A DNA stretch of 64,000 nucleotides from NCBI GenBank assembly GCA_030691505.1, contig JAUYEG010000091.1, forward strand, positions 34,552 to 98,551, in the 5' to 3' direction. The stretch comes from Bacillota bacterium (GTDB lineage: Bacteria; Bacillota; Sulfobacillia; JAUYEG01). The translations under genes and the position numbers were made by a program. This document shows positions 36,685 through 62,120 of the stretch, one piece after another (position 1 is the first letter of the stretch; each line of letters starts with the position of its first letter). The notes under the pieces are model-generated. The model saw nothing but the letters and a program-made list of their open reading frames with translations, had not been told where the DNA came from and made no database searches.

Positions 36685-37433
36685 TGATTAGAGGGCTGTA
36701 CACAGCCGCCTCGGGGATGCTCGTCGGGATGGCCCGCCAGGACGTATGGTCCAACAACCTGGCCAACGCCCAGACTCCGGGTTACCGGCAAGATGAGGTG
36801 GCCCTTAGGAGCTTTCCGGATGTTTTGTTGAAACGCTACGAGGCCGCCTCGCCCGCCGGAGTCATCCTCGGGCGCCTGGGATCGGGCGCCGACGTGGCCG
36901 AGGTCGTTGCGTGTTCGCTGCCTGGCCGCTACGTGCAGACGCAGAACCCGCTTGACCTGGCACTGGAGGGCGACGGCTACCTGGCCGTGGCAACCGCCGC
37001 CGGGACGCGGTACACGAGGCAGGGACGGTTGCACCTTGACGGCGATGGTTTCCTCTGCACGGCGACCGCCCACCGGGTGCTGGATCAGAGCGGAGTGCCT
37101 ATCCGGCTGGCAGGCGGCGAGGAACCGGTGATCGAGCCCGACGGCAGACTGATCGTGGCCGGGGAGAGCGCCGGTCAAATCGGCCTCTGGCGTATCGCAG
37201 GCGGCGTCAGCCCGCGCAAGGAGGGCCAGAACCTCTTCGCCGCCGGCGCGGTCGTGCCCGACGGGGGCATGACGCGCGTCCGCCAGAGCAGCGTGGAGCT
37301 CCCCAACCTGGACGCGATCGGCGCCATGACCGAGATGCTGTCGATCCTCCGCGCCTACGAGGCGAGCCAGAAGGCCCTGCAGGCCCAGGACGAGACGCTC
37401 GGCAAGGCCGTCAACGAAGTCGGGAGGGTTTAG
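36684..37433 (+). CDS. flgF: Flagellar basal-body rod protein (FlgF/FlhO-like)
   Basis: MIRGLYTAASGMLVGMARQDVWSNNLANAQTPGYRQD and C-terminal MTEMLSILRAYEASQKAL. Confidence 0.88.
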   Translation: MIRGLYTAASGMLVGMARQDVWSNNLANAQTPGYRQDEVALRSFPDVLLKRYEAASPAGVILGRLGSGADVAEVVACSLPGRYVQTQNPLDLALEGDGYLAVATAAGTRYTRQGRLHLDGDGFLCTATAHRVLDQSGVPIRLAGGEEPVIEPDGRLIVAGESAGQIGLWRIAGGVSPRKEGQNLFAAGAVVPDGGMTRVRQSSVELPNLDAIGAMTEMLSILRAYEASQKALQAQDETLGKAVNEVGRV

Positions 37434-37434
37434 G

Positions 37435-38220
37435 ATGATCAGATCGCTCTGGAATGCAGCCTCCGGGCTGCGCGCGGGACAGATCCGCGTTGACACCGTG
37501 GCCCACAACGTGGCCAACATCAACACCCCCGGTTACCGGCGGGCCCAGGTCGATTTCGCCGACCTCCTGTATGAAACCGCCGCGGGCGGGCGGCTGCTGC
37601 TCGGCAACGGGGTCAGGCCGATGGTGATGACCAACGACGCGTCGCCCGGGCCGCTCGAACAGACCGGCAACACTCTGGATCTGGCGATCGACGGACAGGG
37701 GTACTTTGTCGTCCAGGCCGGCGACGGGGCCCTGCGCTATACCCGCGACGGGTCCTTCAAGCTGGACGGCGAGGGGCGCATCGTCACATCCGCGGGACTG
37801 CTGCTCCGCCTTGACGGCCCGGATGGCGGTCTGGCGCGGATTCCTCCCGACGCGCGGGAACTAACCGTGGATAGCGGCGGGGCCGTAACGTGCGTGGCCG
37901 GGGACGGCGCTGAGCCCATCGTATTGGGCCGCATCCGGATTGCGTGTCCGCTTCCGGCCGCGTCAGGGCGTACGCCGGCGATGCTTCCGGTTGGCGGCAA
38001 CTTGTTCGTTCCCGCTGACGGAACCACGGTTGTGCTCCACGCGCCCGGTCAGAAGGGCTCCGGAGGCGTCCGGCAGGGATGGCTGGAACGCTCCAACGTC
38101 GTCCTGGCCGACGAGCTCGTGGAGTTGATCACCGCCCAGCGGGCGTTTGAACTCAACTCCCGGGCCGTCCAGACCGCGGACCAGATGCTGAGCCTTGCGA
38201 ACGGCATTCGCAGGGGCTAG
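37435..38220 (+). CDS. flgG: Flagellar distal rod protein (FlgG/FlhP-like)
   Basis: MIRSLWNAASGLRAGQIRVDTVAHNVANINTPGYRR and C-terminal LERSNVVLADELVELITAQRAFELNSRAVQTADQML. Confidence 0.9.
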   Translation: MIRSLWNAASGLRAGQIRVDTVAHNVANINTPGYRRAQVDFADLLYETAAGGRLLLGNGVRPMVMTNDASPGPLEQTGNTLDLAIDGQGYFVVQAGDGALRYTRDGSFKLDGEGRIVTSAGLLLRLDGPDGGLARIPPDARELTVDSGGAVTCVAGDGAEPIVLGRIRIACPLPAASGRTPAMLPVGGNLFVPADGTTVVLHAPGQKGSGGVRQGWLERSNVVLADELVELITAQRAFELNSRAVQTADQMLSLANGIRRG

Positions 38221-38239
38221 AGAGCGGAGGTAGATAATC

Positions 38240-38620
38240 GTGAGCATAGCGAACTGCCCCAACTGCGGTGCGCTCTTCGTGCCGGGCCCCAAGGGGGTCT
38301 GCCCGCGGTGCGCGCAGCTTGAGGAGGAGCAGTTTGAGCTGGTCAAGGCGTTTCTTCTGGCAAATCCGGACGCCGTGCTGGCGGGCGTGTCCGAGGCAAC
38401 CGGGGTCGAACAGCAGGCAGTGCTGAGATTCATCCGTTCATCGCGGCTGGTGGTGGGCCGGCCGCAGAGTTTCGGGCTGACTTGCGACCGTTGCGGCGAT
38501 CCCGTTTCAACCGGGCATCTCTGCCCGTCCTGCGCCAAGGAATTGGCACATCAGATCAAGGGACTCGACGCCCGGGGCCGCAACCGGATGCACAGCATCG
38601 AGATCAAACGCATGCATTAG
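38240..38620 (+). CDS. YvyF-family flagellar operon zinc-ribbon protein
   Basis: CPNCGALF...CPRC at the N-terminus and CDRCG...CPSC at the C-terminus. It sits immediately upstream of flgM, as yvyF does in B. subtilis. Confidence 0.75.
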   Translation: MSIANCPNCGALFVPGPKGVCPRCAQLEEEQFELVKAFLLANPDAVLAGVSEATGVEQQAVLRFIRSSRLVVGRPQSFGLTCDRCGDPVSTGHLCPSCAKELAHQIKGLDARGRNRMHSIEIKRMH

Positions 38621-38988: not shown

Positions 38989-39516
38989 GTGAACGCATTG
39001 AACGTGAGCGAAAGCCCGGGCGGACGCCATCAGCCCGTGCACGAAATAATCGAGGAGCAGGTAGATGCCTACCGGCGGCTGCTTGTCCTTGCCAAGGCCA
39101 AACAGGAGGCCCTCGTGTCCGGCGACGTCGCGGCGCTCGAGACCGCCGTCACCGGTGAAAAGGCCCTGCTGCGCACCCTGGGCTGGCTCGAGCTGCGCTA
39201 CTCCGAAGCCTGCGCCGCGCTGGGACGCGCGCACGGCCTGCGCCCAGGCGAGGTTCAGGACCTGCTCGGCGAGCTTCTCGACCGGCGCGAGGGATCGCTG
39301 GCCGCCGCAGGGCTCAAGGAGCTGGCCGACATCGCCGCCCAGCTGGCTTTCGTGATTCAGGCCAATAGCGAGTTAATACGGCGAGCTCGGGCGTACGTGG
39401 ATTTTTCCCTCGGTCAGCTGGGGCGCATGTCCTGTGGTCCGGTCTATGATCAGACCGGCGCCGTGCTGCCGCCGGTCAGGGACGCCGCCGCGGCAGGCGT
39501 CAGCAAGCGGGTGTAG
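38989..39516 (+). CDS. flgN: FlgN-family export chaperone (YvyG-like)
   Basis: Helical protein (EIIEEQVDAYRRLLVLAKAKQEALVSGDVAALE) between flgM and flgK. Confidence 0.65.
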   Translation: MNALNVSESPGGRHQPVHEIIEEQVDAYRRLLVLAKAKQEALVSGDVAALETAVTGEKALLRTLGWLELRYSEACAALGRAHGLRPGEVQDLLGELLDRREGSLAAAGLKELADIAAQLAFVIQANSELIRRARAYVDFSLGQLGRMSCGPVYDQTGAVLPPVRDAAAAGVSKRV

Positions 39517-39527
39517 GGGGTGACGGG

Positions 39528-40934
39528 ATGCGGACGACCTTTTCCGGCCTTGAGATAGCGAGCCGGGCCCTGGCATCGAGCCAGCGGGCGCTGGACGTGA
39601 CCGGCCACAACATCGCAAACGCCAACGCGATTGGCTACACGCGGCAGCGCGTCACGCTTGCGGCCACCGATCCCTACACGGTCGCGAGCACGGTGCGCGG
39701 GGCCCAGGCGGGGCAGGTGGGCACCGGCGTATGGGTGCTGGAGATCAAGCGGCTCCAAAACCTGCTGTTAGCCGGCCAGACCAGGAACCTCGCCGCCGAG
39801 GCCGCCGCAGCCGAATGCAGGCAGGAGGGGCTGTCGCGTCTTCAGGCGGTTATCAACGAACCCGGCGAGAACGGCCTTCATTCCCTGCTGGACGGGTTTT
39901 GGAATAGCTGGCAGGCGCTCAGCACCGATCCGGCCGATCTCGCCCTGCGAGCGGGCTGCCGCGCCGCGGCGACGAGCCTTTGCGATGGATTCCGGCGCAC
40001 GGCGACCCTGGTGCAGTCGATGCGCGACGGCGCCGATGAGGGCTTGCGCGCCGAAGTCCAGCTGGTCAACTCCTTGGCCCGCGAGATATCACTGATCAAT
40101 GACTCCATACGGCGCGCCACACAGATCGGCGACAATCCCAATGACCTTTTGGACCGCAGGGACGTGCTGCTGGCCGACCTCGCCAGGTCCGTGGACGTCC
40201 GCGTCCACGAGTACGGGGACGGATCGGTCGCGGTCACCATCGGTGGTTTTGAGCTGGTTCAGCAGTTCGGCTTCCAGGAGCTCGCGGTGAAGGTCGACCC
40301 TGTGAGCGGCCTCGTCCAGGCAGTCTGGGCCGACTGCGGCCTGCCGGTCCGCGTGAGCGGAGGCAAGCTGGCCGGGCTCCTCGAAATGCGAGACCAGGTC
40401 TACGGCCGCTTCCTCGCCGATCTCGACAGCATCACCGCAGCGTTGGCTGCGCGGGTCAACGAAGTGCACCGGACCGGGTACACGCTTGAGGGCCAGCCTG
40501 GCGGCGACTTCTTCGACCCATCCGCCACCGGGGCAATCAACCTGAGCCTGGCCCCCGGCATTCTGGACAACCTCCGGAACATCGCCACGTCGGGCGGCGG
40601 CGAGCCCGGCGACGGGAGTTGCGCACTGGCCATCTCGCGGATCCGTGCCGACGGCCTGGCCGGGCTTGGCGGCTACACCGTGGACGGTTTGTACCGCGGT
40701 CTGGTGGCTGACATCGGAGTCCGGGCCTTGGAGACCGACCGTCAACTGGAGACACTGGATCTTCTCGGCAGGCAGGTTGCGGCGCAGCTCGACCGGGAGG
40801 CCGGCGTCTCGATCGACGAAGAGCTGATCGATCTGATGAAACACCAGCATGCCTACAACGCCGCGGCCCGCGTGCTGTCGGCGATGGACGAAATGATCGC
40901 AACCCTGCTCGAGCGCTTGGGCGCGGGCAGGTAG
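39528..40934 (+). CDS. flgK: Hook-filament junction protein FlgK
   Basis: MRTTFSGLEIASRALASSQRALDVTGHNIANANAIGYTRQ and C-terminal VSIDEELIDLMKHQHAYNAAARVLSAMDEM. Confidence 0.93.
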   Translation: MRTTFSGLEIASRALASSQRALDVTGHNIANANAIGYTRQRVTLAATDPYTVASTVRGAQAGQVGTGVWVLEIKRLQNLLLAGQTRNLAAEAAAAECRQEGLSRLQAVINEPGENGLHSLLDGFWNSWQALSTDPADLALRAGCRAAATSLCDGFRRTATLVQSMRDGADEGLRAEVQLVNSLAREISLINDSIRRATQIGDNPNDLLDRRDVLLADLARSVDVRVHEYGDGSVAVTIGGFELVQQFGFQELAVKVDPVSGLVQAVWADCGLPVRVSGGKLAGLLEMRDQVYGRFLADLDSITAALAARVNEVHRTGYTLEGQPGGDFFDPSATGAINLSLAPGILDNLRNIATSGGGEPGDGSCALAISRIRADGLAGLGGYTVDGLYRGLVADIGVRALETDRQLETLDLLGRQVAAQLDREAGVSIDEELIDLMKHQHAYNAAARVLSAMDEMIATLLERLGAGR

Positions 40935-40950
40935 GGTGGGGGATGAGGCG

Positions 40951-41847
40951 ATGCGCGTGACCTGGAATTCGATGCTCGACAACATGCTTGCGGGTATGTC
41001 CGGGGCAGCTGGCAACGTGCAGAAGTATCAGACCCAGCTCGCCACGGGAAAGCGCGTCAACAAGCCCTCGGACGACCCCGCCGCCGTCATCCGGATTCTG
41101 GCGCTGCGCTCCGGCATCCGGCGCGCGGAGGGCTATCTGACCAGCATGGCCCAGGCGCAGGAGTGGCTTACAGTCACCGAGGCCGGTCTCAGCCGCGGCG
41201 CGGCAATCGTCGCCCAGGCCAAGGAGTGTGCCCAGCGGGGCGCCAGCGATGTGCTTACGCAGGCTGGTCGGGACATAATCGCCCGCGAACTGGACGAGTT
41301 GCTCTCGGAGTTGCTCGGGGTCAGCAATACCCGGCACGTGGACCGCTACGTGTTCGCGGGGGCCCGCAACAATGCGGCTCCCTTTGCCTTCCAAGGAGCC
41401 CCCCCTACCGGCTACACGTATTCTGGGGACGAAACGGCGCTGGGCTGGGAGGTGGAACCGGGGGCGGTTGTGAACGTGAACACCATCGGAGGAGCCGTGT
41501 TCGGAGGAGCCGACGGTGCCTTTGCGGCCCTGATCCGTGTTCGCGACGACCTGCGGGCCGGAGACGTGCCGTCGCTCGGTCAGCAGGATCTGGAGCTGCT
41601 GGACCGAGCACACGAGAGGCTTCTATCCGCCCAGGCGGACGTGGGCGCCCGGGCCAGAGGGCTCGATGCGAGCAAGGACACCCTCACGCGGTTGCGGCAA
41701 GAGTACCACTCCCTGCTCAGCGGGTACGAGGATGCCGACATGGCCGAGGCCATCATGCGGCTCCAGATCGCCGAAACGTCGTATGCCGCGGCGCAGGGAG
41801 CGACGGCGAGGATGATCCGTCCCACGCTTGTGGACCTGTTGAGGTAA
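40951..41847 (+). CDS. flgL: Hook-filament junction protein FlgL
   Basis: MRVTWNSMLDNMLAGMSGAAGNVQKYQTQLATGKRVNKPSDDPAA and C-terminal DADMAEAIMRLQIAETSYAAAQGATARM. Confidence 0.9.
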   Translation: MRVTWNSMLDNMLAGMSGAAGNVQKYQTQLATGKRVNKPSDDPAAVIRILALRSGIRRAEGYLTSMAQAQEWLTVTEAGLSRGAAIVAQAKECAQRGASDVLTQAGRDIIARELDELLSELLGVSNTRHVDRYVFAGARNNAAPFAFQGAPPTGYTYSGDETALGWEVEPGAVVNVNTIGGAVFGGADGAFAALIRVRDDLRAGDVPSLGQQDLELLDRAHERLLSAQADVGARARGLDASKDTLTRLRQEYHSLLSGYEDADMAEAIMRLQIAETSYAAAQGATARMIRPTLVDLLR

Positions 41848-41849
41848 AG

Positions 41850-42425
41850 ATGCCGCCGGGCGGCGACGGCCGCCGCTCGGGCCGGGGAGGTGCGCTATTG
41901 GGGACCCTTATTGATATTGAGCCCCTGGGCAGGGTTGAGATAGCTCAAGAGTCGGTTTTCGGCTTCGCCAACGGGCTCCCTGGCTTTCCCGCCGCCCGCC
42001 GGTTCGGGCTGGTGGCGAGGAAGCAGGACAGCCCCTTTGCCTGGATGGTGTCGCTGGACCAGCCCGATCTTGCGTTTGTGATTGTGAACCCCTTTGAGCT
42101 ATTTCCGTCCTACAGCCCCCGTCTTTCGCCGGAGGACCTGCACTGTCTGGGACTGGCGGAGCAGGGCGAGGCCGTTCTGTACGCCATCGTCAACGTACCC
42201 GACGACCCCAAGGAGATGACGCTCAACCTCAGGGCGCCGGTGGCCCTGAATCCGGCGCAGCGGGTCGGTCGCCAGGCGATTCTGGCGGGGCAGGAGTACT
42301 CGACTCGGCATCCCGTGCTGGGAGGAGACCCGGCGCCCAGGCCGCCCACGGACGAGCAGGCCGATGCCGAGAGCAACCAGACAAGCCAGGGAAGGCGTGA
42401 TGCCGGTGCTGGTACTGACGCGTAA
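41850..42425 (+). CDS. fliW: Flagellar assembly factor FliW (CsrA antagonist)
   Basis: LGRVEIAQESVFGFANGLPGFPAARRF...PFAWMVSLDQPDLAFVIVNPF...MTLNLRAPVALN. An alternative TTG start at 41898 (GGGGAGG 7 nt upstream) fits family length better. The C-terminal tail overlaps csrA by 26 nt. Confidence 0.85.
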   Translation: MPPGGDGRRSGRGGALLGTLIDIEPLGRVEIAQESVFGFANGLPGFPAARRFGLVARKQDSPFAWMVSLDQPDLAFVIVNPFELFPSYSPRLSPEDLHCLGLAEQGEAVLYAIVNVPDDPKEMTLNLRAPVALNPAQRVGRQAILAGQEYSTRHPVLGGDPAPRPPTDEQADAESNQTSQGRRDAGAGTDA

Positions 42426-42633
42426 GCGCAACCAGAGCATCATCATAGGCGACGAGGTCGAGGTCACCGTGCTGGAGGTGCGGGGCGACCAGGTAAGGCT
42501 GGGCATCAACGCCCCGCGCCGCGTTTCCGTCCACCGCCGGGAGGTTTATGACGAGATACAGCTGGCCAATCAGGAGGCCGCGAGGTCGCGCCGCGGGCTT
42601 GCCCGGGCGCTTGACTTCTTGAAGCGCAACTAG
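42400..42633 (+). CDS. csrA: Carbon storage regulator CsrA (flagellin translation repressor)
   Basis: MPVLVLTRKRNQSIIIGDEVEVTVLEVRGDQVRLGINAPRRVSVHRREVY. Confidence 0.93.
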   Translation: MPVLVLTRKRNQSIIIGDEVEVTVLEVRGDQVRLGINAPRRVSVHRREVYDEIQLANQEAARSRRGLARALDFLKRN

Positions 42634-42689
42634 CGGCAGTACTGTCTGCGACGCCAACCCGCCCTGGATTGGGCAGATGCTGAGTCCGA

Positions 42690-42718
42690 CCTGCTTCCGA
42701 TGGTGAGCAGGTTTTGTG
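42690..42718 (+). terminator. Rho-independent terminator after csrA
   Basis: CCTGCTTC-CGATGGT-GAGCAGG followed by TTTTGTG. Confidence 0.6.
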
Positions 42719-42843
42719 CCACACCTGCTCGGTATTGAGCAGGTCCGAGTCACCCTTGGTGTCCGAGTCAACCCTTAGCCATGCGACCCCCGCATGCTTA
42801 GCCGTACGACCCACCGCATCCCAAGCCGCAATGGCGAGCCCCT

Positions 42844-42871
42844 TAAGAATCCGGTTGGGGCCACCGATGCA
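42844..42871 (+). promoter_or_regulatory. Sigma-28 (FliA/SigD)-type promoter of the flagellin gene
   Basis: TAAG-N15-ACCGATGC against the consensus TAAA-N15-GCCGATAA, about 100 nt upstream of the flagellin ATG. Confidence 0.6.
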
Positions 42872-42924
42872 ATACGCAGGGTAGGCGGTCGGCCCGGCCG
42901 GCCGGAGGGTCAGAACGCCTGGAG

Positions 42925-42965
42925 GCACGGAAGCCTCAACCCAGGACAAACATCAAGGAGGATGA
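42925..42965 (+). promoter_or_regulatory. Candidate CsrA-binding GGA sites in the flagellin leader (one overlaps the SD)
   Basis: GGC-ACGGAA-GCC places a GGA in a hairpin loop, followed by CAGGACA and AAGGAGGATG (the SD). Confidence 0.45.
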
Positions 42966-42974
42966 ATCCACCAC

Positions 42975-44069
42975 ATGCGCATCAACCAGAACGTCGCCGC
43001 GTTCAACGCCTGGCGCAACCTCACTGTAACCGACTCGCAGATGAACAAGTCCCTTGAGAAACTGTCGTCCGGCTTGCGCGTCAACCGCGCCGCGGACGAC
43101 GCCGCCGGACTGGCCATCTCGGAGAAGATGCGCTCCCAGGTCCGGGGTCTGTTGCAGGCCAGCCGCAACGCCCAGGATGCAATCTCTCTGATCCAGACCG
43201 CAGAAGGCGCGCTGGTCGAGGTCCACAGCATCCTGCAGCGGATGCGCGAACTCGCGGTTGAGGCAGCCACGGACGGGCTGACCGATGCCGACCGCGCCAA
43301 GATCGTGACGGAGTTCACCCAGATCAAGGCGGAAATCGACCGCATTGCCGGGACGACCACATTTAACGGCGTGAACCTGCTCCAGGGCGGCTTGGGCTCA
43401 TCGGTCAGCGCGGTCGGCACGGGCCTCGTGCCATCGGCCGGTGTCGCCAACATCGTGTCCACCGGTGCAGCCGCGGACACCTACACGCTGAGCTTCGTGG
43501 CCCTTACCGGGGTCATGACCCTAACCGACGGAACGAACAGCCAGAACATCACCGTCACGGCACCCACAGGATTCAACACCACGACTATCGATTTCACAGC
43601 GTTTAACGTCCAGGTGACGGTCAACGCAAACCTCACGGCAAACATCGCAGCCAACAACACGTTTGACGTTTCGGCCGGCTCGGCCAGCGTGCTGGTCGGC
43701 GCCAATGCGGGCGACACAATATCCGTCACCGTTAGCGACATGCGGGTTGCAGCTCTGAGCATTACGGCCTCAGCCGTGGACACAGTGGCCAACGCGAGCA
43801 CAGCCCTGAGCGCTCTGGACGCTGCCATCGGCACAGTGTCAACCCAACGCGCCAACCTCGGCGCTTACCAGAACAGGCTGGAGCATACCATCGCCGGCCT
43901 GGGCGTCGCCGCGGAGAACCTGTCCGCAGCCGAATCGCGGATCCGCGACGTCGACATGGCCCTGGAAATGACCCAGTTCACCCGGCACCAGATCCTGATC
44001 CAGGCGGGCACGGCCATGCTGGCGCAGGCCAACATGAAGCCGCAGGCCGTCCTGCAGTTGCTGCAGTAG
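42975..44069 (+). CDS. fliC: Flagellin
   Basis: MRINQNVAAFNAWRNLTVTDSQMNKSLEKLSSGLRVNRAADDAAGLAISEKMR and C-terminal DMALEMTQFTRHQILIQAGTAMLAQANMKPQAVLQLLQ. Confidence 0.96.
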   Translation: MRINQNVAAFNAWRNLTVTDSQMNKSLEKLSSGLRVNRAADDAAGLAISEKMRSQVRGLLQASRNAQDAISLIQTAEGALVEVHSILQRMRELAVEAATDGLTDADRAKIVTEFTQIKAEIDRIAGTTTFNGVNLLQGGLGSSVSAVGTGLVPSAGVANIVSTGAAADTYTLSFVALTGVMTLTDGTNSQNITVTAPTGFNTTTIDFTAFNVQVTVNANLTANIAANNTFDVSAGSASVLVGANAGDTISVTVSDMRVAALSITASAVDTVANASTALSALDAAIGTVSTQRANLGAYQNRLEHTIAGLGVAAENLSAAESRIRDVDMALEMTQFTRHQILIQAGTAMLAQANMKPQAVLQLLQ

Positions 44070-44135
44070 CGGGCGGCGCCAGATCCGGGACCGGGGCCCC
44101 CGCCCCCCGGATGGCCTAAGACGAGACGACGTAGC

Positions 44136-44167
44136 GCGCGGGGCCGGCGGGTTCGCCGGCCCCGCGC
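44136..44167 (+). terminator. Very stable GC hairpin after the flagellin gene (no U-tract)
   Basis: 14-bp perfect stem GCGCGGGGCCGGCG-GGTT-CGCCGGCCCCGCGC. Confidence 0.4.
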
Positions 44168-44230
44168 AGCAAGCAGGGCGAGGCACAGGTGCGAGAGTGT
44201 AAGCCGGAAGCGGAGGAGGCGGGATGCGAG

Positions 44231-54224: not shown

Positions 54225-55348
54225 CCGGTGGGCCAAAGACCAACCTCGCGGCGGTGATGACCGGACCGCACGAGCACTTGGTGTTGCAGGAGCTGCCAAT
54301 GCCTCGCGTGGAGCCGGGTGGTGTGTTGCTTCGTACGATCGCCAGCGAGGTGTGCGGCACCGATGTGCACATCTGGCACGGCCGTTTGAGCGGGGTGCCG
54401 TACCCAATTATCCCTGGGCATGTGAGCGTCGGCGAAGTCGTGGAGACGGGAGGGCATGTCGTCGACGTAGACGGCAGGCCGGTGGCGCCCGGGGAAGTTG
54501 TGACCTTCCTTGATGTGCATGAGACCTGCGGTTTGTGTTGGTATTGCCTTGTGGCCAAGGCCAGCACGCGCTGCCCGCATCGAAAAGTCTACGGGATCAC
54601 CTACGGGGTTGCTGACGGCCTGCTCGGTGGGTGGAGCGAGCATATATACCTTAAGCCGGGGGTCAAGATCGTTCACCTGCCGGACAACGTAAGCCCCGAG
54701 CGCTTCATCGGTGGGGGCTGCGGGCTGCCCACTGCCTTTCACGCTGTTGAGCGAGGCGGGGTCGGGCTGGGAGACACTGTTGCCGTCCAGGGCAGCGGGC
54801 CCGTGGGCCTTAACGCGGTGATCCTGTCCCAGCTGGCCGGAGCTGTCAAAGTGATTCTCATCGGCTCGCCCGCGATCAGGCTGGCCATGGGGCGTGCGCT
54901 GGGCGCCGACGCAACGCTTGACATCGCCGACACGACGCCCGAGCTGCGGCGGGCCGCTGTTTTGGACATGACCGGCGGGCGCGGGGCGGATGTGACCATT
55001 GAAGTGACCGGCAACCCGGCCGCAGTAACCGAGGGCATGCGACTGACGCGTGACGCCGGTGTCCTGGCGGTTGCCGGCCAGTACACGGACGCCGGAGAGA
55101 CGTGTTACAACCCCCACCAGGACCTCAACCGGCGTCATATCGAGGTGCGCGCGACGTGGGGCACGGACTTTTCGCATCTCTACCGTGGCATTCAGGTAGT
55201 CGCCAAGCACGGCGACCGGTTTCGCTGGGAGCGGTTTATCACCCGCCGTTACGGGCTCGGTGGAGCGGAGCAGGCGTTGACTGAGGTGGCGTCGGGCAAG
55301 GTCATCAAGGCGGTCATCGACCCCAGATTTGGTTTGGGGACAGGATAA
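54221..55348 (+). CDS. Zinc-dependent medium-chain alcohol dehydrogenase/reductase
   Basis: CGTDVHIW, GHVSVGEV, structural-Zn Cys cluster CGLCWYCLV...RC, and the Rossmann motif VQGSGPVGL. Confidence 0.88.
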   Translation: MTGGPKTNLAAVMTGPHEHLVLQELPMPRVEPGGVLLRTIASEVCGTDVHIWHGRLSGVPYPIIPGHVSVGEVVETGGHVVDVDGRPVAPGEVVTFLDVHETCGLCWYCLVAKASTRCPHRKVYGITYGVADGLLGGWSEHIYLKPGVKIVHLPDNVSPERFIGGGCGLPTAFHAVERGGVGLGDTVAVQGSGPVGLNAVILSQLAGAVKVILIGSPAIRLAMGRALGADATLDIADTTPELRRAAVLDMTGGRGADVTIEVTGNPAAVTEGMRLTRDAGVLAVAGQYTDAGETCYNPHQDLNRRHIEVRATWGTDFSHLYRGIQVVAKHGDRFRWERFITRRYGLGGAEQALTEVASGKVIKAVIDPRFGLGTG

Positions 55349-55379
55349 GCATGCGGATCGCAGCGCAGGAGGCAGTCGC

Positions 55380-56585
55380 TTGAGCAGAGTCAGGCTGTAC
55401 GATGAGCCACGGTACTATGACATCGCTTTTGGCTGGGACATCAGCCCCGAGGCGGATTTCCTCGAGAGGGTCTTTAGCGATTTAGCAGCGCATGAGGTAC
55501 GCTCGGTGCTCGATTTGGCCTGTGGGACGGGCCGCTTTGCGCTCGAGCTAGCCAGGCGCGGGTACCTTGCTGCGGGCCTCGATCTATCTCGCGATATGTT
55601 GAGCTATGCCCGGCAGAAAGCGGTCGAGCACGGCCTATCGGTTGAGCTCTTCCTCAAGGACATGTCCGACTTTGCCCTCTACCGCACCTTCGACGCCGCA
55701 ATCTGTATGACCGGCTCAATCTACTACCTTCATACGATTGAGAGCCTCGTCGAGCACCTGCGGCGGGTCGCCACTCATCTCGTGCAGGGCGGGCTGTACG
55801 TCATGGATGTCCCCCTCGCTCTGCCGGATTCGGGCGTGCCTCCCGTCCAGGAATGGACGGCGGAGCGTGACCGGGTACGCGTGGCCACCCGCTGGGAGCT
55901 TCTGGGGCCGCCAGATCCGGATACCGGGCTGGCTACCGAGCGGCTTACGCTACGCGGCTTCGAGCGGGGCTGGGAACGGGTATGGGAGCAAGAAGCCACC
56001 GTCCACTTGCTCCGACCACAGGACCTCCAGGCAGCCGTCGACGCGTCGCGCCATTTCCGACTTGCCGCCATGTACCGTGAATTTGACGTTGAGAGCAGGC
56101 AGGACGGGCCTCCTGCGGGACACCGGGTCATCGTCGTGTTGGTCCGGACCACCGCGCCCGAGCCCCTGCCGCCCCGCGATGAGTCCGCCGACCGGTACCC
56201 CCCGAGAGGGCGGGATGGTGCCGGACGGAGGCCGGGACGAGAGGGCGGCGACAGACGGACGGGCGGGCGGGGCCCCAGACGCCCGGAGCAAGGTGCGGGC
56301 CGGGACCGTACTCGCGATAGCTCCAGCGCGTCGCCGCAACGACCGTCCAGGCCAGCCAGACCCCCTAGACCTCCCGCGCCCCAAGCGCCCGTTGACGCTA
56401 CGCCTGAGGGCCCGGTGGCGCAGGCGTCCGCCGCGCCTCCGGCCGGCAATGCTCCAAAGCGGCGCCGCCGGCGTGGCGGGCGAGGGCGCCGCGGCGCGGG
56501 CCCGCAACCTCCGCAGGGCGCGGCGCAACAGGACCCAGGAGCGCCGCCCAAGCCGCCGCGCGGCGCAGGAGATCCGCTAGCCTAG
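55380..56585 (+). CDS. Class I SAM-dependent methyltransferase with a ~135-aa Arg/Gly/Pro-rich disordered tail
   Basis: Motif I VLDLACGTGRFALELA. The TTG at 55380 lies 7 nt after AGGAGG. The C-terminus is rich in RGR, RRP and PPRP runs (KRRRRRGGRGRRG). Confidence 0.8.
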   Translation: MSRVRLYDEPRYYDIAFGWDISPEADFLERVFSDLAAHEVRSVLDLACGTGRFALELARRGYLAAGLDLSRDMLSYARQKAVEHGLSVELFLKDMSDFALYRTFDAAICMTGSIYYLHTIESLVEHLRRVATHLVQGGLYVMDVPLALPDSGVPPVQEWTAERDRVRVATRWELLGPPDPDTGLATERLTLRGFERGWERVWEQEATVHLLRPQDLQAAVDASRHFRLAAMYREFDVESRQDGPPAGHRVIVVLVRTTAPEPLPPRDESADRYPPRGRDGAGRRPGREGGDRRTGGRGPRRPEQGAGRDRTRDSSSASPQRPSRPARPPRPPAPQAPVDATPEGPVAQASAAPPAGNAPKRRRRRGGRGRRGAGPQPPQGAAQQDPGAPPKPPRGAGDPLA

Positions 56586-56996: not shown

Positions 56997-57029
56997 GGAC
57001 GATGTGTAAGCAGGAGGAGGGACAAAGAG

Positions 57030-57782
57030 TTGAATGCAGGCGTAACGGTTTCCTTTATCGTCTTCGCCCTATTCGTCGGGGTTTTCTACTACTCCGGCGC
57101 CCGTTTCAAGCAGACGGGCAAGTTCAGCGCGCGCAAGTTCGAAGCGCTCGGCAAGATGGAAGAAGCCATTGGCCGTGCGACGGAAATGGGCAAGCCGGTG
57201 CACTGGAGCTACGGCATGGGAGCTTTCGACGCTCAGTACCTGGCGGCGTTCGTGCTCCTTGAGTACGCTGCGAGCCTGTGCGCCAAGTACGACACCCGCA
57301 TGATCGTCAGCATTGCTCTGCCTGAGGTCGTTCCGATGACCGAGGAGGTCATCCGCAAGGCGTACATCGAGCAGGGTAAGCTTGATACTCTGCACACGGA
57401 GGATGTGCGGTTCTGGGGTGGTTCGCACAACCCGGCAATGATTGGCACCATCTCGCGCGAGCAGGTCGCTGGCAACTTCATGATCGGATCGCTGTTCCAC
57501 GAGTCGATCCTGAGCATTGAGGCAGCCGCCCGCTATAACGCGATCCAGGTCATGGGCACCCAGAACACCCACCAGTTGCCGTTCATCGCTGCAGGGTGCG
57601 ACGCCATCTTCATCGGCGCGGAGATGTTCGCAGCAGCGGCCCAGCTTGAGCCGACTCCGGTTCGCGTCGGGTCCGTATGGGCGGCAGACGTCCTCAACGT
57701 CGTTTTCGTCGGTCTCATGATCATCGGGGCTCTTCTGGTCACGGCCGGCAACACCAGCCTGAAGACCCTCATCCTAAAGTAG
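57030..57782 (+). CDS. Uncharacterised bitopic membrane protein A (N- and C-terminal TM, ~190-aa central domain)
   Basis: The TTG lies 8 nt after AGGAGGAGGG. TM segments are VTVSFIVFALFVGVFYY and VLNVVFVGLMIIGALLV. I recognise no family. Confidence 0.7.
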   Translation: MNAGVTVSFIVFALFVGVFYYSGARFKQTGKFSARKFEALGKMEEAIGRATEMGKPVHWSYGMGAFDAQYLAAFVLLEYAASLCAKYDTRMIVSIALPEVVPMTEEVIRKAYIEQGKLDTLHTEDVRFWGGSHNPAMIGTISREQVAGNFMIGSLFHESILSIEAAARYNAIQVMGTQNTHQLPFIAAGCDAIFIGAEMFAAAAQLEPTPVRVGSVWAADVLNVVFVGLMIIGALLVTAGNTSLKTLILK

Positions 57783-57796
57783 GGTGGTGAACGGGC

Positions 57797-58423
57797 ATGC
57801 AATTTGTCAAATCTAAACTGCCGGTTGTCGTCACGTTCGGGGCCGCGTTCATCATCGTTGCGCAGTACTATTTCAACATTCCCGCCTGGAAGACTCTCGC
57901 GGCCGAGTTTCTCCGGTGGAATGTCATCATCGCGGCCTTCGCCCTTGCGCTCGGCATCGGCGGTATCGTCAAGCTGCACTGGGGCAGGATCTCCAGGCGG
58001 CAGCCCACGGCCGTTTACAGCGCTGCCACTCTAATCACGTTGGCCATCTTCCTGTTCGTCGGCCTCTACGAGACCACACGTGGCAAGACCTATACCTGGT
58101 TGTACGACTTCATCTACAACCCGGTAGCGGCCACGTCGTATGCCACAACGTTTTTCTTCATCACCTCAGCTGCGTACCGGGCCTTCAGGATCAAGAACAG
58201 TTACGCAGCCGTCCTGATGATCTCAGCGATCCTGATGATGCTTCAGGTAGGCGTGTTCTCTGTTTACCTACCTGTTGCACCGAAGATCGCTGCCTGGGTT
58301 TGGAACATCCCGACGACCGCGGGTATGCGCGCTGTGACTATCGGCGCAGCCCTCTCCGTGGTAGGCAATGCGTTCCGGGTCATCACCGGGCTCGAGCGCG
58401 GCCACCTCGGCGGCGGCGAGTAG
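57797..58423 (+). CDS. Uncharacterised polytopic membrane protein B (~6 TM)
   Basis: 208 aa, strongly hydrophobic. The start follows the upstream stop embedded in TAGGGTGGTG. Confidence 0.7.
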   Translation: MQFVKSKLPVVVTFGAAFIIVAQYYFNIPAWKTLAAEFLRWNVIIAAFALALGIGGIVKLHWGRISRRQPTAVYSAATLITLAIFLFVGLYETTRGKTYTWLYDFIYNPVAATSYATTFFFITSAAYRAFRIKNSYAAVLMISAILMMLQVGVFSVYLPVAPKIAAWVWNIPTTAGMRAVTIGAALSVVGNAFRVITGLERGHLGGGE

Positions 58424-58436
58424 GGGGTGCATAGCG

Positions 58437-59267
58437 ATGATAAAGAAGCTTAGCGACATTGACGTAAGATGGTTGTATCTGATCATGGTCATCTTTGCGA
58501 TCTACCCGTTGCTCAGGCCGATCGGCCTTCCGTTGCCGATCACCGATCGCGCCCGGAATTCGTTCGCCGCGATCGATGCCCTGCGGCCGGGAGACCTGGT
58601 ATTCTTCGGGATCGACTACAGCCCGACCCAGGAAGCCGAGATGTGGCCGCAGACCCTCGCGATCGGCCATCACCTGGCGCAGCGCGGCGTCAAGATGGTA
58701 ATGCTCAACATGATCGAGGGCGCCTACCGTTATGAAGAGCGGATCCGCGACTTCATCCTTAGCGAGTACCCGAACTACCAGTACGGAGTTAACATAATCG
58801 CCCTGCCGTTCACAGCCGGCCGCGAAGCCGCGTTCAACTCGATAGTCGCGGACCTCAAGGGCCTTTATCAGGTAGACCTCGCCGGTGCGGCACTCAACAC
58901 CCTGCCGCTCTGGAACGAGATCACCGGTGCGGGCGACTTTGACATGTATGTTGAGCTCGCCGACGCCCCCGACTGGTGGCTGCGTCCAATGAGCCAGGTG
59001 CCTGGTCTTAAGCTCTGGAACGGCACTGTGGCGAGCGGCGCGTCCACAATGGCGCCTCTCTACCAGTCCGGCCAGATGGTTGGGTTCATCTACGGCATGG
59101 CCGGCGCCGCTGAGTACGAAGCTCTCGTGAAGAAGCCCGGCTCCGCAGCGGCAGCCATGGACACGCAGTCCATGGGGCATGCGTTGATCATCTTGTTCGT
59201 GATCCTTGGCAACATCGGCTACATCGTTCAGAGGAACGCTGAAGCCAAGGCCAAGGGTCGGAAATAG
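58437..59267 (+). CDS. Uncharacterised bitopic membrane protein C (same architecture as A)
   Basis: The ATG at 58437 follows TAGGGGGTG. TM segments are WLYLIMVIFAIYPLL and HALIILFVILGNIGYIV, with a central ~220-aa domain. Confidence 0.7.
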   Translation: MIKKLSDIDVRWLYLIMVIFAIYPLLRPIGLPLPITDRARNSFAAIDALRPGDLVFFGIDYSPTQEAEMWPQTLAIGHHLAQRGVKMVMLNMIEGAYRYEERIRDFILSEYPNYQYGVNIIALPFTAGREAAFNSIVADLKGLYQVDLAGAALNTLPLWNEITGAGDFDMYVELADAPDWWLRPMSQVPGLKLWNGTVASGASTMAPLYQSGQMVGFIYGMAGAAEYEALVKKPGSAAAAMDTQSMGHALIILFVILGNIGYIVQRNAEAKAKGRK

Positions 59268-59279
59268 GGGGTGACTGCC

Positions 59280-59888
59280 ATGTTGAATGCAACCACAGGT
59301 ACATGGCTAGCCGCGTTCCTGACGCTCGGTCTGTTTAGCTGGATGTACAAGGAGAACCCGTGGTTCCGCCTCGTGGAGCACATCTACGTCGGCGCGGCAC
59401 TCGGCGTTCTCGCATCGCAGGGCTATCAGAGCGTCATGGACATTGCATGGAAACCGGCAACCCAGCAGGGTAAGACCCTCCTCTACGTCCCGCTGATCTT
59501 GGGCGCCCTGCTGTTCTCCCGGTGGTCCAAGAAGTACATGTGGGTCAGCCGGTCGTCGATGGGCTTCCTGGTCGGCACGCTCTCTGCTGTTGTCATGACC
59601 GGCGCGATCAAGGCTCAGCTGACTGCACAGGTCGCGGCGACGATGATGCCGCTCAACTCGGCAAATAACATCATCTTCTTTGTCATAACCGCGGCTGCTA
59701 CCATGTACTTCGTCTTCACGTTGCAGGCGAAGTGGGCGAGCCCGATCATGGACCTCGGCAAGTACGGGATGATGATCGCGTTCGGCGCCACGTTCGGCAA
59801 CACGGTCATGTCGCGTATCTCACTCTTCACCGGCCGGTTGCAGTTCCTGCTCTTTCAGTGGCTGAAACTGACGCCGGGCGGCAGCTAG
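59280..59888 (+). CDS. Uncharacterised polytopic membrane protein D (~6 TM)
   Basis: The ATG at 59280 follows TAGGGGGTG. The product is hydrophobic, about 200 aa. Confidence 0.7.
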   Translation: MLNATTGTWLAAFLTLGLFSWMYKENPWFRLVEHIYVGAALGVLASQGYQSVMDIAWKPATQQGKTLLYVPLILGALLFSRWSKKYMWVSRSSMGFLVGTLSAVVMTGAIKAQLTAQVAATMMPLNSANNIIFFVITAAATMYFVFTLQAKWASPIMDLGKYGMMIAFGATFGNTVMSRISLFTGRLQFLLFQWLKLTPGGS

Positions 59889-59976
59889 ACCTAGACACAG
59901 GCACAAGAAGGGGGGGGCATTGCGCCCCCCCTTTTCACGGAAACATATTTCGCCCCACTAAGGAGGTTTTCGGCTG

Positions 59977-62118
59977 TTGGGCAAAGTGACATCCCCGCAG
60001 GAGTTTTTCGGTTTCGAGATGGGTGCGGATCGCAAGCTGGCCCGATGGGACAAGATCGTGGAGTATTTCAACAAGCTGGATAGCGAGTCAGACCGCCTGA
60101 AAGTCGTGGATATGGGCAAGAGCACCGAGGGCAACCCGTTCCTGCTCGTGATCATCTCGTCGCCGGCCAACCTGGCCAACCTGGAGCACCTGCGGCAGAT
60201 CAACCTCAAACTGGCCGACCCGCGCGGCCTGGACGATGCGGCGATCGAGGCGCTCGTCTCGGAGGGCAAGGCCGTCGTCTGCCAGAGCATGAGCCTGCAC
60301 GCTACAGAGGTCGGCGGGACGCAGATGGCCCCCGAGCTGGCGTACGACCTGCTTGCAGGCGACTGCGAGGAGACGCGCCGGATACTGGACGAGGTCATCT
60401 TCCTCATGGTCCCGTGTTTTAACCCCGACGGCGAGATAATGGTGACCGACTGGTACAACAAATGGCTGGGGACCGAGTGGGAAGGCAGCTCGCTGCCGTG
60501 GCTTTACCAGAAGTACACCGGGCACGACAACAACCGAGACGCGTACGCGCTGAACATGCCCGAGGCGCAACACATGGCCAAGATCCTCTTCCGGGACTGG
60601 AAACCGCAGGCCTACCAGGACCATCACCACATGGGCAGCGACGGTGCGCGGCTGTACGTCGCTCCGTACTGCGATCCCATCCACCCGCACGGCGACCCGC
60701 TCATCTGGCGGGAGCACTCCTGGTACGGCGCCCACATGGCGTACAAGCTCGAGCAGGCCGGCAAGAGCGGCATCCTCAACGGGGCGATGTTCCCGGGGTG
60801 GGGCCACCTCGGTTTCCACTGGATCACGATCTACCACAACATCGCCGGGATGCTCACGGAATCGGCGAGCGCCAAGCTGGCCACGCCACTCTACGTGCAT
60901 CCAAGCCAGCTGACGGGCGCGGGGATGTTTGCGCCCAAGACCTGGCCCAAATACGAGGCGCAGACAAACTTCCCGAACCCCTGGCCCGGTGGCTGGTGGC
61001 GGCTGCGCGACATCGTCGAGCAGCAGAAGATCTCGTCCGGGGCCCTGCTCGACCTGGCGGCCCGGCACAAGGAGACAGTCCTCTATAACGCCTACCTCAA
61101 GGCCAAACGGCAGACCGAGCGCGGTGCGGAGGGCGGCCCGTACGCTTACGCTATCCGCGAAGACCAGCACGACGCCCTGACCGTCCGCAAGCTGGTGCAG
61201 AAACTGCTTGACCAGGGTATCGAGGTCGGGCGGGCCAAGGCCGGCTTCGAGTCCGGCGGGTGCTGCTATCCGGCCGGGACCTACGTGGTCCAGCTGGCCC
61301 AGCCCAAGATGGGCCTGATCAAGACCCTGCTGGGCCGGACCCGGTATCCGGACACCTACTGGACGCGCCGGATGGACAACTCGCCGGGCGTCTTTGACAC
61401 GGCAACCGACACGATCGCCGAGTTTATGGGCGTCACGGCCGAGCCAGTGGATGCCCCGGTTACAGTCGAAACCGAAACTATCTGCTGCGCGGCTCCGGTC
61501 GCGGCGGCCGTGTGCAAGAGGGCGGGCGCTACCGCGGGCTGGATCCTCGACGGGCGGCTCAACGACGCCTACCGGGTCGTCAACCGGCTGCTCGCCGCGG
61601 GCGTCAAGGTGTCGCGGCTTGCCAAGCCGGCGTGCGCGGGCGCCGCGTGTTTCGGTGCCGGATCGTTCCTGGTTGAGCCGGGCGCGGGCGCAGAGGCCAT
61701 TCTGACCAGGGCGGCGCAGGAACTCGGCGTCGGCGCCCAGGGGGTCGCGGTCAGGCCGGACGTCCCCGAGGTGCCCGTGAGCACGAAGCGCGTGGCGATG
61801 TACCAGCGGTATTTTGGCGGCAACATGGATGAGGGCTGGACGCGGTTCATCTTTGACACGTTCGAGTTCCCGTTCGAGACCGTCATGGATCCGCAGATGA
61901 AGGCAGGGAATCTGAGGGACAAGTACGACGTCCTGGTCCTGCCGCCCGACCGCAAGGAGATCATGGTCGACTTCAACAAGGCGGACCGCAAAGACCCGAT
62001 GGTGCAGATGTTCATCCGCCATTTCGCAGGGTCGTGCCCGCCGGAGTACCGGAGCGGTTTCGGGGACGAGGGCGTCAAGGCGATCCGCGAGTTTGTCGCC
62101 CAGGTGGGCGACTGGTGA
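59977..62118 (+). CDS. Large M14-family zinc metallopeptidase (carboxypeptidase-like), N-terminal 713 aa
   Basis: HxxE zinc motif in SMSLHATEVGG, YTGHDNNRD, and the downstream His in YQDHHHMG. The TTG at 59977 lies 10 nt after AAGGAGG. The frame ends at 62118, but homology appears to continue in another frame. Confidence 0.8.
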   Translation: MGKVTSPQEFFGFEMGADRKLARWDKIVEYFNKLDSESDRLKVVDMGKSTEGNPFLLVIISSPANLANLEHLRQINLKLADPRGLDDAAIEALVSEGKAVVCQSMSLHATEVGGTQMAPELAYDLLAGDCEETRRILDEVIFLMVPCFNPDGEIMVTDWYNKWLGTEWEGSSLPWLYQKYTGHDNNRDAYALNMPEAQHMAKILFRDWKPQAYQDHHHMGSDGARLYVAPYCDPIHPHGDPLIWREHSWYGAHMAYKLEQAGKSGILNGAMFPGWGHLGFHWITIYHNIAGMLTESASAKLATPLYVHPSQLTGAGMFAPKTWPKYEAQTNFPNPWPGGWWRLRDIVEQQKISSGALLDLAARHKETVLYNAYLKAKRQTERGAEGGPYAYAIREDQHDALTVRKLVQKLLDQGIEVGRAKAGFESGGCCYPAGTYVVQLAQPKMGLIKTLLGRTRYPDTYWTRRMDNSPGVFDTATDTIAEFMGVTAEPVDAPVTVETETICCAAPVAAAVCKRAGATAGWILDGRLNDAYRVVNRLLAAGVKVSRLAKPACAGAACFGAGSFLVEPGAGAEAILTRAAQELGVGAQGVAVRPDVPEVPVSTKRVAMYQRYFGGNMDEGWTRFIFDTFEFPFETVMDPQMKAGNLRDKYDVLVLPPDRKEIMVDFNKADRKDPMVQMFIRHFAGSCPPEYRSGFGDEGVKAIREFVAQVGDW

Positions 62119-62120
62119 CG

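Follow-up and report, generated by a model that had tools for sequence, protein, structure and literature searches.

A Conserved Four-Gene Membrane Module With DUF6754 in a Sulfobacillia Genome and Its Possible Role in the Import of Peptide-Like Substrates

Introduction

ATP-binding cassette (ABC) importers, tripartite ATP-independent periplasmic transporters (TRAP-T, DctPQM) and tripartite tricarboxylate transporters (TTT, TctABC) are encoded in operons and combine two polytopic subunits with extracytoplasmic and cytoplasmic domains. The same general plan is seen in a module of four genes, here called A, B, C and D (together ABCD), in a 64,000-nucleotide (nt) stretch of DNA from a Bacillota bacterium of the Sulfobacillia (assembly GCA_030691505.1, contig JAUYEG010000091.1, positions 34,552 to 98,551). 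The whole stretch is referred to below as the window, and all coordinates follow its numbering. A preliminary description of the window had singled out four tightly coupled genes, and the ORF (open reading frame) listing together with direct reading of the sequence confirmed four co-directional ORFs on the + strand, with stop-to-start spacers of 12–14 nt. The elements are listed here (aa, amino acids; TM, transmembrane segment).

57012..57021, + strand: Shine-Dalgarno (SD) sequence of gene A, AGGAGGAGGG, 8 nt 5' of the TTG start, as read from the sequence
57030..57782, + strand: gene A, TTG start, 250 aa, DUF6754 protein with the order TM, alpha/beta domain, TM
57797..58423, + strand: gene B, ATG start, 208 aa, six-TM integral membrane protein
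58437..59267, + strand: gene C, ATG start, 276 aa, with the order TM, variable alpha/beta domain, TM
59280..59888, + strand: gene D, ATG start, 202 aa, alternative start GTG 59271, about six TM

Our analysis revealed that ABCD is a real, co-inherited module, and that it matches no characterized transporter or enzyme family by profile or structure search. The module lies outside every known kind of system, while its general role, transport, is probably conventional. In the reading that we prefer, to which we give a probability of roughly 0.4, the four proteins are subunits of one complex of the cytoplasmic membrane, which would act as a multi-subunit importer for peptide-like or amide substrates; here we infer assembly, transport, direction, substrate class and energy source alike.

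Comparison With Described Systems

Besides the common plan, ABCD resembles binding-protein-dependent importers in that its cytoplasmic part is the most conserved and its external part the most variable, and in having many paralogs beside catabolic enzymes. Unlike ABC importers, it has no ABC ATPase or Walker motifs. No ABC_tran domain was found in the four proteins or in the M14 and M20 peptidase-family proteins encoded next to them, and ABC_tran occurred near the module in only 5 of the 80 loci described below. The families BPD_transp_1/2, FecCD and ECF-T/S, which also belong to the ABC importers, were absent from B and D (61 homologs each). TRAP-T and TTT differ likewise, as no match to DctP/DctQ/DctM or to TctC/TctB/TctA was obtained in Pfam or NCBIfam. 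Unlike substrate-binding proteins, C is about half their size, has a single domain and is anchored by two TM; the sole periplasmic binding protein among its Foldseek matches was LuxP (probability 0.25, template-modeling score (TM-score) 0.16). The mannose-type phosphotransferase system (PTS) with EIIB/EIIC/EIID is also dissimilar, since no PTS families appeared in the Pfam and NCBIfam scans, and EIIB structures were absent from the top 50 Foldseek matches of A.

The pairs NqrD/NqrE and RnfA/RnfE consist of two six-TM subunits of about 200 aa that are encoded in one operon with bitopic subunits and possibly have opposite orientations. ABCD is like Nqr/Rnf in this architecture only, and in other branches a soluble neighbor of the module has a faint RnfC_N/NqrA-like barrel-sandwich domain. 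However, PF02508 was unmatched by B and D of the window and absent from the top 25 families in the 61-member scans of their homologs. The consensus sequences of B and D contain no conserved cysteines, and there are no flavin or Fe-S subunits in the ABCD operon. With the RCK/KTN systems (MthK, KtrAB) the module would share a cytoplasmic Rossmann-like domain, that of A, attached to a membrane permeation unit, and MthK RCK domains were among the top Foldseek matches of A (E = 0.013–0.02, TM-score 0.30–0.34). Unlike in those systems, the TM-scores are those of a generic fold, A lacks GxGxxG and has two TM anchors of its own, and no K+ channel or transporter signature was found in B or D.

Conservation and Distribution of the Module

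A pattern scan with one genome per species revealed at least 584 loci encoding a relative of A, of which the best 80 were taken with 10-kb flanks, and the partners were located by iterated hidden Markov model searches. The comparison of gene neighborhoods that the preliminary description had suggested came out clearly in favor of a unit: among these 80 unrelated loci, B was recovered from 78 and C and D from 76 each, the exceptions to the full module lay mostly at contig ends, and the order was always A-B-C-D. The module is single in 60 cases and a tandem double or triple in seven, and several head-to-head pairs occur. The loci come from at least 10 phyla, and 4 of them are archaeal. Bacterial hosts include many metagenome-assembled genomes (MAGs) of Bacillota, Symbiobacterium thermophilum, Fermentithermobacillaceae, Armatimonadota, Eisenbacteria, Zixibacteria, Ignavibacteria, Nitrospirota, Planctomycetota and Dormibacterota, and archaeal hosts include Bathyarchaeia, Methanomethylicia and Culexmicrobium. 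The family thus extends to FCB-group candidate phyla and to TACK archaea. Because two of the hosts are cultured, Symbiobacterium thermophilum and Fervidibacter sacchari (Armatimonadota), the module is directly testable.

Several MAGs carry three or four separate ABCD modules, and paralogous modules, several per genome, are found in peptide-fermenting Bacillota; no plasmid-borne copies of the module were found. Whole ABCD units have been multiplied, either in tandem (up to three) or head-to-head, in the loci L038, L048, L074, L080, L041 and L028. In Zixibacteria and Ignavibacteria, three ABCD units stand after one ATPase/partner pair (see below), and their A proteins have N-terminal FN3-like ectodomains. 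The mean pairwise identity over 85 complete modules was highest for A (47%, and 51% in its soluble domain), followed by D (38%), B (36%) and C (34%, and 32% in its soluble domain).

Protein A and the DUF6754 Family

None of the four proteins could at first be assigned to a known family. For B, C and D of the window this still holds, as no match was found in Pfam or NCBIfam, and the profiles of all four proteins obtained no match against all PDB sequences. A, in contrast, is a full-length member of the Pfam family DUF6754 (PF20539; E = 1e-50, 172.7 bits against a cut-off of 27, covering positions 13–255 of the 257 in the profile). Database searches gave 487 homologs of A, and DUF6754 was present in all 120 of those listed. 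The Pfam entry describes one protein, without an assigned function, and no paper mentioning DUF6754 or PF20539 was found in the literature searched. B, C and D, and with them the conserved order of the four genes, are covered by no family and by none of the papers searched.

The division into two bitopic proteins (A and C, each with one N-terminal and one C-terminal TM around a soluble domain) and two proteins with about six TM (B and D) was borne out by family-averaged hydropathy, and for A and C also by AlphaFold2 models. In the model of A (predicted local distance difference test (pLDDT) 90.7, predicted TM-score (pTM) 0.85), long helices at 6–29 and 210–238 stand around a six-stranded beta/alpha domain, and hydropathy likewise shows one TM at either end. 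Foldseek searches with this model against the PDB obtained only generic Rossmann-like matches (TM-score about 0.3). For the models of A and C together, the matches included RCK, SIS, shikimate dehydrogenase, GT-B halves, vWA and flavodoxin fusions, with a best E-value of about 3e-3. As modeled, the domain of A is Rossmann-like and has no nucleotide-binding signature.

The orientation of A can be predicted from its homologs. Long homologs have a signal peptide and a 100-aa FN3-like ectodomain ahead of TM1, followed by DUF6754, and the 16 residues after TM1 contain 4.5 lysines or arginines (K/R) on average. Both features place the DUF6754 domain in the cytoplasm, so that A is predicted to be N-out with a cytoplasmic soluble domain. 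Conserved residues of A are R35, GRATEMG 48–54, R143/E144, E158, E164, Q173, HQLPF 181–185, C190/D191 and E198, and in the model the invariant polar residues lie at the C-terminal ends of strands and in loops.

Such an arrangement is that of active sites in alpha/beta enzymes, and A could accordingly be read as the catalytic part (His181, Cys190, Asp191 and Glu/Arg residues) of a membrane-anchored enzyme or processing complex, which would carry out group translocation or modification of an amino-acid derivative with B, C and D as scaffold or channel. A is also the most conserved subunit, most of its Foldseek matches are enzymes with Rossmann-like domains, and the neighbors of the module are amino-acid and peptide enzymes. 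However, no likeness of A to an enzyme family was found by Pfam, NCBIfam, PDB sequence or fold search, and A of the window departs from the family at several positions that are otherwise at least 85% conserved (T70Y, A157H, G166A, G170N, Y192A and E197A). Furthermore, a variable extracytoplasmic domain in C and two six-TM subunits exceed what a scaffold needs. We regard an enzymatic role as rather unlikely, and return below to the importer.

Proteins B, C and D

C was modeled from 32 database homologs (pLDDT 92.8, pTM 0.86). Helices at 10–26 and 236–275 stand around a single beta/alpha domain of about 200 aa, family-averaged hydropathy shows one TM segment at either end, and Foldseek against the PDB gave only generic alpha/beta matches (TM-score about 0.3). 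Both tails of C are rich in K/R, with a conserved D-R-R before TM1, and the flanks of the domain are acidic or neutral. The K/R-rich termini indicate that C is N-in with the domain outside, and we therefore predict an extracytoplasmic domain. Several polar residues of the C-terminal TM helix are conserved (D242, Q244, S245, H248 and N259).

B has six hydrophobic segments in family-averaged hydropathy. Its inner loops contain 10.1 K/R and its outer loops 4.0, from which an N-in/C-in orientation is predicted. A conserved motif, ASAAYRAFR, follows TM4, and homologs of B form 1812 clusters at 50% identity (E<=1e-3). In one metagenomic homolog of B (P0402, L086:165-1505), the TM3–TM4 loop contains an inserted alpha/beta domain that resembles C (E = 3e-44), and the locus has a separate C gene after the B gene. 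Because this loop is predicted to be an outer one, the insertion places the C domain and the loop on the same side of the membrane and hints at a joint action of B and C. Many other B homologs have unassigned insertions of 60–260 aa at the same TM3–TM4 position.

D also has six hydrophobic segments, but its K/R counts (8.1 vs 6.0) leave the orientation ambiguous, weakly favoring N-out. With regard to the opposite orientations seen in dual-topology gene pairs, the predictions are clear for A (N-out) and C (N-in), and of the two polytopic proteins B shows a marked K/R bias and D a weak one. The motif LYKENPxYRxAEH is conserved in D, and both B and D have conserved charged motifs at the membrane boundaries. 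D homologs number at least 1464 clusters at 90% identity. Comparison of the D profile with itself (hhalign) aligned residues 7–114 with 67–184 (E = 4e-4, probability 34%), so D may be built of repeated two-TM hairpins; B has no such repeat. In Fervidibacter and its relatives D reaches 415 aa (L064:12362-13606, L062:12379-13629, L071:10818-12167), with a 200-aa extension that has no Pfam match, and B is 450 aa long in L071.

The 61 B and 61 D homologs were each scanned individually against Pfam, and the matches were noise only, none being above cut-off. TMD0_ABC appeared in 13 of 61 (best E = 0.0011, below cut-off), DUF3394, which is known from fused TRAP permeases, in 4 of the 61 B homologs at noise level (E>=0.027), and Wzy_C weakly with D in one family member only (E = 0.016–0.043). 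The profile and Foldseek searches which the preliminary description had called for consequently placed the module in no characterized transporter or enzyme family.

Peptidases and Amide Hydrolases Beside the Module

Two genes for peptidase-family proteins lie next to ABCD in the window.

59977..62537, + strand: M14 metallocarboxypeptidase-family gene, about 850 aa, cytoplasmic (PF00246, E = 2e-15, 57.6 bits against a cut-off of 21.6)
62617..63945, - strand: M20-family amidohydrolase, convergent, 442 aa, of the aminoacylase/hippurate-hydrolase/AbgB type (TIGR01891, M20_dimer)

An M14 metallopeptidase after the module had been noticed at first reading. Its strand and family proved correct, but the gene is frameshifted and is separated from D by a hairpin. 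A 1-nt frameshift near 62097–62100 splits it into the frames 59977–62118 (713 aa) and 62034–62537 (167 aa). The 856-aa M14 ortholog of a relative (L085) aligns across the break in two frames (EFVQSGGRLVGMG), which implies a 1-nt insertion or deletion in the G-rich CAGGTGGG, and the break is either a pseudogene mutation or an assembly error. Judged from the sequence between them, M14 is probably a separate transcription unit from A-D. The convergent AbgB-like M20 gene was upheld in full: it scores 157.9 bits against the NCBIfam TIGR01891 cut-off of 153.75 (E = 3.8e-46) and matches a recurrent neighbor cluster (cluster 4) at ortholog level (E = 4.6e-99). Members of this cluster adjoin ABCD in 9 other loci, so about ten in all. 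The N-termini of M14 and M20 show no signal peptide.

In a 70%-identical relative the order is M14-ABCD-M14(856 aa)-GNAT-M20-M14-M14, and a 91%-identical relative has upstream synteny in common with the window. M14 was considered as a neighbor of the whole family and rejected, as it is absent from the 80 genome loci and kept only in close relatives. The link of the module with peptide and amide hydrolases recurs in other loci. Using Pfam, we compared 112 genes immediately adjacent to the module with 112 genes at least 6 positions away in the same loci. Amidohydro_1/3 was found in 7 of the adjacent genes, Peptidase_M20 in 6, GGT in 2 and aminotransferases in 8, while the distal genes contained Amidohydro_3 in 2, M20 in 2 and no GGT. 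Taken together, amidohydrolases, M20 and GGT accounted for 15 of 112 adjacent and 4 of 112 distal genes (P-value = 0.015, Fisher test). Among the window genes scanned with Pfam from 35.1 kb to the window end, which left aside the ORFs at 36570–38538, no transporter was found, so ABCD is the only membrane component seen there.

A Possible Importer of Amide-Linked Substrates

In the importer that we favor, B and D, with about six TM each, would form the membrane core and the translocation path. The variable outer-face domain of C, tethered by a helix at both ends, would serve as receptor in substrate recognition, and the conserved Rossmann-like cytoplasmic domain of A, tethered in the same way, would be the coupling, gating or ligand-binding engine. 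The imported substrates would be conjugates of amino acids, peptide-like or with amide linkage (oligopeptides, N-acyl or gamma-glutamyl amino acids), and the cytoplasmic M14 carboxypeptidase and M20 amidohydrolase could then cleave them. A variable domain outside, a conserved domain inside, two polytopic subunits, and paralogs by cytoplasmic hydrolases form the pattern expected of a substrate-specific importer family. The gradient of conservation from A through D and B to C is also counted for import, as it is found in binding-protein-dependent importers. An assembly of the four proteins into one complex is suggested indirectly by the strict synteny, the short coupled junctions and the C-like domain inserted in one B homolog.

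Several observations weigh against this interpretation. ABCD has no sequence or structural likeness to a known transporter, and C resembles periplasmic binding proteins only as a generic alpha/beta fold. No P-loop or energy-coupling motif was identified in A, whose GRATEMGKP does not fit GxxxxGK[ST], and carriers driven purely by ions do not usually have a cytoplasmic domain so large and so highly conserved. The topology is based on the positive-inside rule and on the architecture of homologs. With respect to the hydrolases, the hairpin between D and M14 means that the two are not strictly co-transcribed, and the enrichment is modest (about 13–20% of adjacent genes) and limited to the Bacillota paralogs; outside Bacillota, the module stands among housekeeping genes or beside a set of genes with a GlmL-like ATPase.

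If ABCD is a transporter, its architecture would be new, with two six-TM subunits and inward- and outward-facing alpha/beta domains, each anchored by two helices. Most hosts are uncultured degraders of peptides or polymers, and in their metabolic reconstructions these genes currently have no role. If the family were assigned, a gap that recurs in catabolic clusters for peptides, N-acyl amino acids and gamma-glutamyl compounds would be closed, and DUF6754 would gain a function and three partner families. It would then also be of interest how a Rossmann-like domain that lacks nucleotide motifs is coupled to membrane transport.

Gene Contexts in Other Phyla

The flanking ORFs of the 80 loci cluster into two context types (I and II). 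In type I, the module stands beside four extra genes, which encode an ATPase, a 375-aa partner and two small membrane proteins. The ATPase, of about 615 aa, belongs to the GlmL/MutL family of the ASKHA proteins (PF13941, E = 7e-127); it is below the NCBIfam GlmL cut-offs and has a C-terminal extension. The 375-aa protein has a barrel-sandwich N-terminus with faint Biotin_lipoyl and RnfC_N matches and a KOW-like C-terminus, and falls in no family. The small membrane proteins (clusters 0 and 2) have about 125 and 160 aa. This set flanks ABCD in about 25 of 80 loci, from Eisenbacteria, Zixibacteria, Ignavibacteria, Planctomycetota, Nitrospirota, Bathyarchaeia and one Bacillota clade, and the type I loci are particular clades in the tree of A; the Armatimonadota loci contain only the small membrane proteins of the set. 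Examples of type I are L002, L010, L014, L018, L019, L021, L027, L036, L046, L050, L053, L057, L070, L079 and L084 (L084:6064-10004), and in Eisenbacteria a glycine-cleavage operon gcvT-H-P1-P2 lies ahead of the whole set. Type II comprises the other Bacillota clades, including the deep branch to which the window belongs, where the extra genes are absent and the module lies beside amide-bond hydrolases. None of the four type I extra genes was found in the window.

These contexts bear on an alternative in which ABCD is a device for envelope biogenesis, export or signaling. Instead of importing nutrients, it would act at the cell surface by moving or sensing a lipid-linked intermediate, a surface polymer or an external signal, and the hydrolase neighbors in Bacillota would be secondary. 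In agreement with this, the module of Armatimonadota, Eisenbacteria, Zixibacteria, Nitrospirota and archaea stands among housekeeping genes, accompanied by the two small membrane proteins (clusters 0 and 2), A homologs of diderm phyla have the extracellular FN3-like domain, and some B and D homologs have large extra loops or extensions. However, no kinase, HAMP, GGDEF, glycosyltransferase or polymerase partner recurs among the neighbors, the Wzy_C match of D is weak and confined to a single member, and multiple paralogs per genome beside catabolic hydrolases fit nutrient uptake better. An envelope or signaling role seems unlikely to us.

The 375-aa partner was also used in a reverse test, in which metagenome contigs were scanned and 23 loci were obtained whose flanks measured 6 kb or more in either direction. 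ABCD was adjacent in 10 of them and the GlmL-like gene was present in 15, and the solitary partner lies by accA, era, prfA and prmC. The association of the partner with ABCD is far above chance and extends across phyla, but it is not obligatory. An obligatory coupling of the GlmL-like set to ABCD was rejected, given the 10 of 23 partner loci with ABCD and the partner genes found by accA, era and prfA. A literature search for 'GlmL' with 'membrane' gave only unrelated g/ml matches.

It is conceivable that ABCD forms the membrane part of a primary-active transporter of a new class, driven by the GlmL/MutL actin-fold ATPase in place of an ABC or P-type ATPase. This ATPase would act with the 375-aa partner and the two small membrane proteins and would dock on the cytoplasmic DUF6754 domain, and the many substrate-specific Bacillota paralogs, that of the window included, would share one such set encoded elsewhere in the genome. 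We count for this proposal that one ATPase/partner pair may precede three ABCD units in tandem, that the extra genes flank ABCD in about 25 of 80 loci, and that ABCD is adjacent in 10 of the 23 partner loci. The occurrence of the partner alone among housekeeping genes and the lack of any extra gene in the window are counted against it. Overall we consider an ATPase-driven complex of this kind very unlikely, and the preferred reading remains an importer composed of the four ABCD proteins.

Relationship Between A-B and C-D

The alternation of bitopic and polytopic proteins had been taken at first sight for a duplicated two-gene unit, a claim that the comparisons left unproven. BLASTP revealed no similarity between A and C or between B and D. 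Profiles were compared by hhalign with alignments of 90 sequences and of 135–217 sequences, and also with AlphaFold2 secondary structure. A and C aligned collinearly (A 31–114 vs C 30–110) with E = 0.003–0.017 and a probability of 5–10%; the addition of secondary structure gave no improvement (E = 0.017). Four control pairs gave E = 0.15–0.36, compared with 0.003–0.005 for A and C. For B and D, the values were E = 0.06–0.1 and a probability below 1%, which is no evidence for a common origin. In the models of A and C, helices and strands are nearly position-matched, including the last strand-helix before TM2 (FIGAEMF vs FIYGMAG). From these alignments, A and C may be ancient duplicates in opposite orientation, their homology not being demonstrated.

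Extended to the whole module, this becomes an inverted-topology duplication, in which A-B and C-D would descend from one two-gene unit inserted in opposite directions and would form a pseudo-symmetric antiparallel assembly, compatible with any function. The common plan and matched elements of A and C point this way, as do their collinear best alignment, which reproduces the earlier pairing by eye and beats the controls, and the predicted topologies (A N-out and C N-in, B N-in and D weakly N-out). On the other hand, the hhalign probabilities are low for both pairs, BLASTP gave nothing, and beta-alpha repeats of Rossmann-like domains are collinear by nature. Moreover, the orientation of D is ambiguous, and its internal hairpin repeat is not shared by B. 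We regard a duplicated origin of the module as unlikely.

Operon Structure and Base Composition

The preferred start of gene D is ATG 59280, 7 nt after GGGGGTG, and the alternative GTG 59271 falls within the SD. Orthologs of D in two relatives (L082 and L085) have 202 aa, and this length together with the SD spacing is the reason for the choice. The junctions read TAGGGTGGTG..ATG for A-B and TAGGGGGTG..ATG for both B-C and C-D; at each of them the SD overlaps the upstream stop codon, and relatives keep such junctions. The embedding of TAG stops in the next SD was correctly described at the outset, but it is not unusual. Stop codons among the 46 confident ORFs of the window are 27 TAG, 14 TGA and 5 TAA, so that four TAG stops are not beyond chance, and we rejected them as a special signal. 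The junctions are compatible with translational coupling and statistically ordinary here. TAG as the commonest stop of the window is unusual for a 67% GC genome.

The lower GC content noted for the module is real (0.585–0.60 vs 0.667 for the window). However, the GC content at third codon positions (GC3) of its genes, 0.78–0.835, is inside the range of the flanking genes (0.73–0.92). The low GC reflects the hydrophobic amino-acid content of membrane proteins, and horizontal transfer as its source was rejected because GC3 resembles that of the neighboring genes.

One further element stands 3' of gene D.

59910..59935, + strand: hairpin with a 9-bp G/C stem, GGGGGGGGC-ATTG-CGCCCCCCC, followed by TTTT, probable terminator

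The terminator scan placed this stem on the - strand, the + strand, with only 4 T, being below the scan criterion. The hairpin is a probable end of the A-D operon, and M14 has an AAGGAGG of its own, separate from D. Both elements make it most likely that the four genes form an operon of their own. The 440 nt that precede A were searched for a riboswitch or leader RNA, and no Rfam match was obtained at E<=1.

Other Genes of the Window

Flagellar genes lie upstream of the module at 38989–48327 (flgN, flgK, two genes of the flagellin family, and fliD with an F5/8 type C domain). A gene for a PAS sigma-54 activator is located at 46858–48327. It led us to look for a sigma-54 promoter upstream of A, which was rejected as no correctly spaced match was found. 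A SAM-dependent methyltransferase gene at 55329–56585, also upstream of the module, encodes a protein whose last 130 aa or so are of low complexity, with much Arg, Gly and Pro, and the GC content of this part is very high (0.70–0.75). Besides M14, a second gene of the window is disrupted: the Amidohydro_1 gene at 49776–50564 has 263 aa, compared with 418–419 aa in the relatives L081 and L085; it lacks residues 252–395 of the relatives, and its frame shifts after this point.

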